Below are positions 34,583-35,114 of a stretch of DNA of 64,000 nucleotides, piece after piece. This DNA comes from an uncultured Candidatus Peribacteria bacterium (GTDB lineage Bacteria; Patescibacteriota; Gracilibacteria; UBA1369; LOWO2-01-FULL-3). The stretch is from contig CAYLHX010000003.1 in NCBI GenBank assembly GCA_964383675.1, positions 2,412 through 66,411 on the forward strand, read 5' to 3'. How positions within the stretch are numbered: the first letter of the stretch is position 1; the number at the start of each line of letters is the position of its first letter. Below the pieces are notes generated by a model. It saw only the letters and a program-made list of their open reading frames with translations, did no database searches and was not told where the DNA came from. The position numbers and the translations under genes are program-made.

Positions 34583-34823
34583 GGGGGGACTTACGTCCCC
34601 CCGCCTTTGGTACGTTGTGCGAAGGTATCTGACAGAAGGCGTCAGCCGGTCCGCGAAGCGGATCCGTCAGATACCCCAGGGGAATCCCCTCTTCAGCTAG
34701 GGGATTTCCCCTGGGCATTGCACTAACTGAGTCTCTCTCACACCTTCCAAGGAAGATGGTCAACGAGAGTACCGCCCACCTTGCGGTGGAGGCACCCGCC
34801 ATAAGACGGGACTGCTACCAAAG
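34583..34823 (-). ncRNA. RT-proximal copy of a structured ncRNA (unit plus trailing GC hairpin), forming the 5' leader of the RT gene
   Basis: - Closing helix: 34605..34612 ctttggta pairs with 34816..34823 taccaaag.
- Three-way junction stem: 34624..34633 pairs with 34666..34675.
- Long hairpin at 34676..34714.
- Small hairpin ccacc-ttgc-ggtgg.
- Terminal 8-bp GC hairpin at 34583..34602, whose loop reads GUAA on the minus strand.

The strand was assigned from flanking promoter-like elements, from G.U pairs that exist only on the minus strand, and from co-orientation with the RT gene. Confidence 0.6.
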
Positions 34824-34828
34824 ACGAT

Positions 34829-34857
34829 ATAATGAAACATAGTTGCTAAAAAGTCAA
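34829..34857 (-). promoter_or_regulatory. Candidate promoter of the proximal ncRNA / RT operon
   Basis: On the minus strand: TTGACT (34857..34852), a 17-nt spacer, then CATTAT (34834..34829). The predicted +1 is near 34822, at the first base pairs of the closing helix. Confidence 0.4.
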
Positions 34858-34881
34858 TGGTATTTCCTAAATACAAAGATA

Positions 34882-35114
34882 GGGGACCCGAGGGTCCCCA
34901 TGAACTTTGGTACGTTGTGCAAAGGCTATCGGACTGAGGCGAAGCCGCTCCCGAAGGGACTGTCCGATAGCCCATTTTGGGGGCGTCCAAAACGCACCCA
35001 AAATGGCATGACACTAACTGAGTTTCTCTCACACCACCCAATGATGATGGTCAACGAGAATACCGCCCACCCTGAGGTGGAGGCACCCGCCAAAAGACGA
35101 GACTGCTACCAAAG
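34882..35114 (-). ncRNA. RT-distal copy of the same structured ncRNA (unit plus trailing hairpin and U-rich tract)
   Basis: - Closing helix: 34905..34912 pairs with 35107..35114, with the same sequence as the proximal copy.
- Junction stem: 34924..34934 pairs with 34962..34972.
- Long hairpin at 34973..35006.
- Small hairpin ccacc-ctga-ggtgg.
- A 7-bp GC hairpin at 34882..34899 is followed on the minus strand by UAUCUUUGUAUUU.

The helices match the proximal copy in position but differ in sequence. Confidence 0.6.

Follow-up and report, generated by a model that had tools for sequence, protein, structure and literature searches.

Retrons of types I-XIII unite a reverse transcriptase (RT), an msr-msd noncoding RNA (ncRNA) and an effector, as in Ec86/Eco1 and Eco8 (Mestre et al. 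2020, PMC7736814). Their ncRNA is defined by terminal repeats that hybridise, a conserved G at the junction, an msr part with one to three hairpins and an msd part made of a single or double long hairpin, and their RTs carry the motifs NAXXH in region X and VTG in region Y (PMC7736814). Arrays of retron ncRNAs have been engineered as 'multitrons' for genome editing (bioRxiv 10.1101/2023.07.17.549397). In the MoxR-vWA conflict systems, RTs have been linked only through diversity-generating retroelements (DGRs) (Kaur et al. 2020, PMC7159879). Here we describe a locus in a 64-kb stretch of DNA from an uncultured Candidatus Peribacteria bacterium (the window, meaning this whole stretch), where the intergenic gap upstream of a retron-like RT gene holds two structured RNA units, U (upstream) and D (downstream), and where the RT shares an operon with a P-loop NTPase and a vWA-domain protein. 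With moderate confidence, we read the two units as separate retron-type (msr-msd-like) template RNA genes, encoded on the minus strand and serving the adjacent downstream RT.

The locus resembles retrons in its paired terminal repeats, the G that follows the 5' repeat, the two or three 5' hairpins, the long or double 3' hairpin, an RT whose predicted fold is nearest to that of retron RTs, and the placement of this RT in an operon with accessory, putative effector genes. In contrast to retrons, the pair of MoxR-like NTPase and vWA protein is not among the described effectors, and the hosts are bacteria of the candidate phyla radiation (CPR), namely Patescibacteria and Peregrinibacteria. With multitrons the locus shares one RT, several arrayed ncRNAs with a common recognition part and a differing msd payload; however, multitrons are man-made, whereas arrays of the window type are natural, with a promoter for each unit and hairpins as payloads. 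Similarly, the pairing of an AAA+ (AAA_5-type) NTPase with a vWA protein, in operons of sporadic distribution, recalls the MoxR-vWA conflict systems, but here the operon also includes a retron-like RT and its RNAs as integral parts, and the AAA_5 match of the NTPase is weak. In the literature searched, RTs with both ncRNAs and vWA or MoxR partners were nowhere described, nor were retrons in Patescibacteria or natural multi-ncRNA retrons, arrays being reported only as engineered multitrons.

Two structured RNA units upstream of the RT gene

The gap (34565-35156, 592 nt) lies between the RT open reading frame (ORF) at 32501-34564(-) and an ORF at 35157-36359(-), and it holds both units, each of about 215-225 nt. 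The initial annotation had proposed two units with a period of 300 nt, and its coordinates were reproduced: the closing-helix strand CTTTGGTACGTTGTGC... begins at 34605 and at 34905. A 21-nt block at these positions (spacing 300) is 95% identical between the units, and a 112-nt block (34714-34825 versus 35005-35116) is 89% identical at a spacing of 291 rather than 300, owing to a 9-nt difference in the variable part. In the 5' to 3' direction of the minus strand, the order is the 5' strand of the closing helix P1, a G, the hairpins P2, P3 and P4, a linker, the hairpins P5 and P6, the dinucleotide CG, the 3' strand of P1 and a GC hairpin, with the following elements.

34903..35116, minus strand: ncRNA unit U, with the P1 5' strand GUCUUUGGUA at 35116-35107 and the P1 3' strand UACCAAAG at 34912-34905
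35116-35010 and ~35009-34913, minus strand: conserved 5' domain of unit U with P2-P4, and its variable 3' domain
35006-34972 and 34972-34924, minus strand: long hairpin P5 and branched hairpin P6 of unit U
35106 and 34914-34913, minus strand: invariant G of unit U, and the CG before its P1 3' strand
34603..34825, minus strand: ncRNA unit D, with the P1 5' strand at 34825-34816 and the P1 3' strand UACCAAAGGC at 34612-34603
34810-34795, 34794-34770 and 34769-34733, minus strand: 5' hairpins P2, P3 and P4 of unit D
Linker and inner stem of unit D, minus strand: GUUAGUGC/GCACAAC
~34716-34675 and 34675-34624, minus strand: P5 and branched P6 of unit D
34815 and 34614-34613, minus strand: invariant G and CG of unit D

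P2 is a small hairpin, P3 has a conserved bulge and a tetraloop, and P4 contains a GUUGACC...GUGAG internal loop. The 3' domain, formed by the long hairpin P5 and a second hairpin P6 (branched in the window), is almost wholly Watson-Crick paired, and the terminal inverted repeats pair as P1 over 8-10 bp in both units. All the helices listed in the initial annotation as staying paired in each copy despite their differing sequence were found. The junction stem appears as inverted repeats at 34624-34636/34663-34675 versus 34924-34934/34962-34972, the long hairpin at 34671-34690/34699-34718 versus 34972-34986/34992-35006, and the closing helix at 34602-34612/34816-34826; the small inner hairpins, the ctctc/gagag versus ttctc/gagaa helix and the two GC hairpins were read directly from the sequence. 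When the minus strand was folded against dinucleotide shuffles, both units proved far more stable than the shuffles (z = -7.9 and -5.4). The 5' domain is about 90% identical between U and D and the 3' domain only about 44%, yet the same hairpins are kept; a BLAST comparison of the two 3' domains with each other returned no match. A DGR template/variable repeat was considered and rejected, as nothing else in the window matches the variable halves and the stem differences are compensatory rather than adenine-specific. The window was also searched for sites complementary to the payloads, and none was found.

The RNA strand is minus, as is evident from folding energy, G.U pairs and promoters. In both window units this strand, which is also the RT strand, is favoured over the plus strand by 9-14 kcal/mol in folding energy, and it folds better in five of the six homologous units; its fold has many G.U pairs that on the other strand are A.C mismatches. 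A promoter scan placed a sigma-70-type promoter a few bases before the closing helix of each unit, and each unit is trailed by a GC hairpin.

35120..35148, minus strand: promoter of unit U, TTGACA (35148-35143), 17-nt spacer, TG-extended TATTTT (35125-35120)
34829..34857, minus strand: promoter of unit D, TTGACT (34857-34852), 17-nt spacer, CATTAT (34834-34829)
34882..34899, minus strand: GC hairpin trailing unit U, GGGGACC-CUCG-GGUCCCC, terminator-like, with a T-rich tail
34583..34602, minus strand: GC hairpin trailing unit D, GGGGGGAC-GUAA-GUCCCCCC, without a U tract

The promoter of unit U stops 4 nt ahead of the first base of the closing helix. On these signals, U and D are predicted to be separately transcribed RNA genes; to the initial annotation this adds a minus functional strand, GC hairpins that trail the units and, as predicted, two separate transcription units. 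The GC hairpin of unit D lies 19 nt ahead of the RT start codon, with no RT promoter between them. Since this hairpin has no U tract and the RT no promoter of its own, the RT is probably expressed by read-through.

Conservation of the units in related operons

RNA units are strictly associated with the RT-NTPase-vWA operon. Every locus with complete flanks has one to five units of this architecture, the homologous operons carrying 1, 2, 2, 2, 3, 4 and 5 RNA genes. Beside the core RT family, a wider family with the same three-gene operon comprises P0008 (646 aa) and RTs of ~590-630 aa. The units are distributed over the related loci as follows.

L003 (RT P0006): two tandem units upstream, each with a TTGACA promoter and a GC hairpin
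L001 (RT P0003): two units on the same strand, one upstream and one downstream of the vWA gene (13440-13690)
L002, L004/L009 and L006-L008 (RTs P0004, P0006 and P0007): at least one unit each; the contigs break inside the RNA region
L005 (RT P0005): no unit seen directly upstream; the contig is short
L014 (596-aa RT relative): five tandem units upstream of the RT, 5715-7420 (5715-5982, 6090-6355, 6465-6720, 6784-7048 and 7158-7420)
L012 (595-aa RT relative): four tandem same-strand units downstream of the vWA-like gene, 14018-15075
L015: one unit, upstream
L011: three units downstream, on the opposite strand and convergent with the operon, 16100-17050 (-)

Covariation was measured over six units from three loci (the window, L003 and L001), with P1 pairs counted by script in a fixed register; the full-length MAFFT alignment fails on the 3' domains, and column-wise covariation is claimed for P1-P4 and not for P5/P6. 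In P2-P4, 93.9% of the cells are paired versus 41-50% with the partners slid, seven pairs are changed on both sides, and the covariation score is 0.455 versus 0.279 in shuffled alignments, a score reached by none of 500 shuffles. In P1, 57 of the 60 cells are paired (35-44% in the slid controls), with double changes at six of the ten positions. A covariance model, R1, built from the 5' domains detected the sixth, untrained unit downstream of the vWA gene in L001 (29.9 bits, E 2e-5), and over the 64-kb window it found nothing else credible. One weak R1 match at window positions 1726-1832(+) (14.7 bits, E 0.16) overlaps an opposite-strand ORF and is taken as chance.

The claim of the initial annotation that selection acts here on RNA structure rather than on coding capacity is therefore upheld, both by helices kept at about 44% identity of the 3' domains and by covariation in other loci, that is, beyond the two window copies. 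Its view of the fold as one of no recognised kind also stands: Rfam gave no match at the gathering thresholds, and at E <= 10 only sub-threshold, chance-level matches to the hairpins. Likewise, the ORFs that cross the region are the artefacts they had been taken for: neither L003 nor L001 conserves their translations, and U and D differ in frame. The presence of three such ORFs of 93, 93 and 105 aa (34521-34802(-), 34760-35041(-) and 34843-35160(+)) would be expected if the region encoded small proteins, a reading to which we give practically no credence. U and D do not share a reading frame, and the indel in their variable half causes a frame shift; the matching ORFs of L003 and L001 are either truncated or bear no relation to these, and the substitutions keep base pairs, not codons. 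Coding of small proteins was rejected on account of the frame shifts and the non-conserved translations.

A G stands directly after the P1 5' strand in all 16 complete units examined, from seven loci, where its role as a branch point is putative. Every unit of L012, L014 and L015 has a promoter, a terminal helix of 8-10 bp with locus-specific sequence, a terminator hairpin, this G and, immediately ahead of the P1 3' strand, a further G, which with one exception is part of a CG. In L011 promoters and terminators were confirmed for the three units, and a closing helix for unit C. When units of one array are compared, identity is 0.57-0.97 in the 5' domains and 0.23-0.54 in the 3' domains, the latter sharing only motifs of 11-19 nt. 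Wobble pairs are rarer in the 3' domain (14/229) than in the 5' domain (20/146; Fisher p = 0.016), which is expected if a DNA copy of the template has to fold too.

The same loci bear on whether the units are genes at all. A cis-acting 5' leader (an attenuator or riboswitch), a recent neutral duplication or a mobile repeat would fit the place of the window units immediately ahead of the RT start, as well as the lack of an obvious terminator tail on unit D and of a dedicated RT promoter. We consider such readings very improbable. Units with their own promoters are found downstream of the operon in L001 (13440-13690, with the promoter TTGACT-17-TATAAT) and in L012; L014 has an array of five; and the convergent units of L011, although not detected by R1, keep the layout of promoter, structured RNA and terminator. 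Moreover, the variable halves have fully diverged yet keep their hairpins, R1 has no other credible match in the 64 kb, and Rfam gave no match to a leader or riboswitch. A cis-acting leader is largely refuted by where the units of L001, L011 and L012 lie.

Several details of individual loci may be recorded. In L001, an extra TTGACA promoter at 5560-5640 is followed by ATCTTTGGAAGCCCGC..., which resembles a unit start (terminal-helix strand and G-C) without a body and may be what is left of a third RNA gene. Three of the contigs shown (five on record) begin at one point, 246 nt before the P0007 RT; the breaks that several independent assemblies show in the ncRNA region are understandable because tandem, near-identical handles would disrupt short-read assembly. 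The L014 array begins directly after a tRNA-Ser(gga) gene (5463-5552), its five units share the terminal helix GAUCCAAUU/AAUUGGAUC, each with a TTGACA promoter and a U-tailed terminator, and units 3 and 4 have handles that are 97% identical and payloads that are only 36% identical. In L012 the terminal helices vary by unit: GUUUGUUU/AAACAAAC occurs twice, ACCUAUUU/AAAUAGGU and CCUGUUU/AAACAGG once each. Downstream of the L015 operon, beside a Ro60/TROVE gene, about 1 kb of non-coding DNA (8847-9810) contains a thrice-repeated structured element with CGGCUACUUCA; these elements may be Y-RNA-like genes rather than RT templates. L011 is a second, paralogous RT-NTPase-vWA operon in the same metagenome-assembled genome (MAG) as L001, followed by about 1 kb of non-coding DNA; two of its three units are alike, and a 162-aa gene call in that region is probably spurious.

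The reverse transcriptase and its operon partners

The gene order in every locus is the RT, then a P-loop NTPase of ~1060 aa, then a vWA protein of ~650-700 aa. In the window these genes are:

32501..34564, minus strand: reverse transcriptase, 687 aa, with RVT_1 at aa 158-310 and YADD at 253-256
29257..32490, minus strand: P-loop NTPase, ~1078 aa from the ATG at 32490, with Walker A GGxPGLGKT and weak AAA_5 (MoxR/dynein-type) matches
27310..29247, minus strand: vWA-domain protein, 645 aa, the third conserved operon gene

In an alignment of all seven core-family RTs, YADD and the motif-A aspartate are invariant. This bears on the possibility that the units are structured small RNAs that are never reverse transcribed, acting as scaffolds or as antitoxin-like inhibitors of the NTPase and vWA proteins, with the RT as just an RNA-binding partner. 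Independent promoters and hairpins, a position that varies relative to the operon and hypervariable 3' domains are all consistent with such RNAs; nevertheless, we regard this explanation as rather improbable, given the invariant catalytic residues, the confinement of wobble depletion to the 3' domain, and the invariant G and G/CG that flank P1 in every unit, which are hard to explain for a scaffold.

The best hidden Markov model (HMM) matches of the window RT are to retron RT models, though weak (~1e-13 in PADLOC); its relatives of ~590 aa match retron RT models at ~1e-40. The top fold match of its AlphaFold model (mean predicted local confidence, pLDDT, 75) is Ec86 (E 7e-10, target-normalised TM score 0.58-0.60), followed by Eco8, Eco7 and Ec78, and then by G2L4 and group II intron RTs. 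As modelled, the fold appears closest to retron RTs over about the first 400 aa, beyond which lies a C-terminal extension of ~270 aa.

Defence-associated RTs (DRTs) offer another comparison. DRT2 makes a rolling-circle concatemer cDNA that encodes a protein, and DRT9 synthesises a homopolymer. DRT2, DRT3 and DRT9 are known to have a stand-alone structured ncRNA gene beside a defence-type RT, used as scaffold and template, and the units of the window could likewise be non-retron templates or scaffolds bound by the RT, with no branched multicopy single-stranded DNA (msDNA) formed. It speaks for this that the RT is not a canonical retron RT, that it has weak matches to Drt3a (1e-5) and Drt2 (0.05; 12.7 bits against a cut-off of 390), and that a DRT2 RT is among the fold matches, at rank 24. 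However, retron RTs rank above DRT RTs both by sequence and by fold, the RNA architecture differs from that of the DRT RNAs, and accessory genes are present here. There is no signature of a never-ending ORF: stop-free frames are not in excess in the 3' domains (10 sense and 8 antisense versus 10.6 expected) and the lengths of these domains are not multiples of three, on which grounds a DRT2-like never-ending ORF was rejected. Neither is a U-rich template tract evident, and the terminal helix with its G corresponds to the priming geometry of retrons (PMC7736814). We therefore consider DRT-like templates unlikely, while still giving them some weight.

For the accessory pair, PADLOC gave no hit. 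The window NTPase matches those of L012 and L014 at 5e-85 and 5e-47, respectively, and the window vWA protein matches that of L012 at 9e-52. Within the NTPase family, four of the six members have weak AAA_5 matches, and a CxxCxxxxCPxH cluster is conserved; its residues (C663, C666, C671 and H674 in alignment numbering) are invariant and resemble a zinc site. The Walker B region of the NTPase reads IIINEVQ instead of the DE motif. A gene for a TRAM/tRNA-U5-methyltransferase adjoins both the window system (35157-37772(-)) and the L011 paralog (18321-19941), on opposite sides; this arrangement points to insertion at a shared housekeeping neighbourhood and not to vertical synteny.

The RT is rare: a HMMER search that covered 1.84 billion entries exhaustively yielded six to seven representatives, and the named ones stem from MAGs of Patescibacteria or Peregrinibacteria. 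No further loci emerged when collections of genomes, metagenomes and viruses were scanned with RT-derived and degenerate patterns, the only returns being an unrelated RT and the Peregrinibacteria contig already known; P0008 was the sole return of a profile search with the ~590-aa RT relatives, and blastn of the entire intergenic region against phage genomes gave no match. With no Rfam entry for the RNA and only seven clusters (90% identity) of the RT family among 5.8 billion protein clusters, the system is easily missed.

A possible natural array of template RNAs

On the retron-type reading that we favour, transcription of each RNA would begin from a separate sigma-70-type promoter, precisely at the closing-helix 5' strand, and would end in the GC hairpin. 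Its 5' and 3' ends would pair as P1, the counterpart of the retron a1/a2 repeats, and the conserved msr-like 5' domain (P2-P4) would be the handle recognised by the RT. The invariant G that follows P1 (U, 35106; D, 34815) would give the 2'-OH primer, and the RT would copy the variable msd-like 3' domain from the invariant G/CG that directly precedes the P1 3' strand. This would yield a small structured complementary DNA (cDNA) joined to the RNA, so that one RT could make two distinct hairpin cDNAs in the window and one to five in the relatives. These ribonucleoprotein/cDNA complexes may work with the co-operonic P-loop NTPase and vWA proteins, most likely as an anti-phage sensor and effector. 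Reverse transcription, G-priming, the identity of the product, the interplay with the NTPase and vWA proteins and the role in defence are all inferred.

A number of observations weigh against this assignment. Covariation rests on six full units only, four of them being within-locus pairs, and R1 misses the units of L011, L012, L014 and L015 even with filters off; for the RNAs of these loci, kinship is therefore drawn from their architecture and from operon homology rather than from RNA sequence. With one to five RNA genes per RT, each under a separate promoter and followed by a hairpin, the layout is unlike the single ncRNA that canonical retrons co-transcribe with the RT, and in some relatives the RNAs sit downstream of the operon or, in L011, are even convergent with it. 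The RT itself, about twice as long as retron RTs, has NPMQG in place of NAXXH and ILG in place of VTG, of which only the G is retained (G307, invariant). It falls below every curated family cut-off, with 59.5 bits for NCBIfam retron_St85_RT against the cut-off of 235, and it matches no PADLOC retron type specifically. As judged from its sequence, the system departs from retrons in two defining features, the RT motifs and the single co-transcribed ncRNA, agrees with them in RNA architecture, and would stand outside the described retron types.

More tentatively, we suggest that these loci may be natural retron-type arrays, in which one RT reads a set of RNAs, one to five in number and each transcribed on its own, that share a constant handle and differ in hairpin payloads that diverge fast, giving a panel of cDNAs (for example, decoys or sensors for phage factors) coupled to MoxR-like NTPase and vWA effectors.

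If this is correct, a single RT serving several templates, each with the constant handle and a hypervariable payload, would change the picture of retrons as one RT with one ncRNA. The loci would define a new retron-like class, found in bacteria of the CPR group where the taxonomy is known, and a natural counterpart of multitrons, and they could provide compact natural scaffolds for multiplexed DNA production in the cell. Finally, the tiny genomes of CPR bacteria would prove to hold RT-based, immunity-like systems, and the NTPase-vWA pair would join the repertoire of retron effectors.

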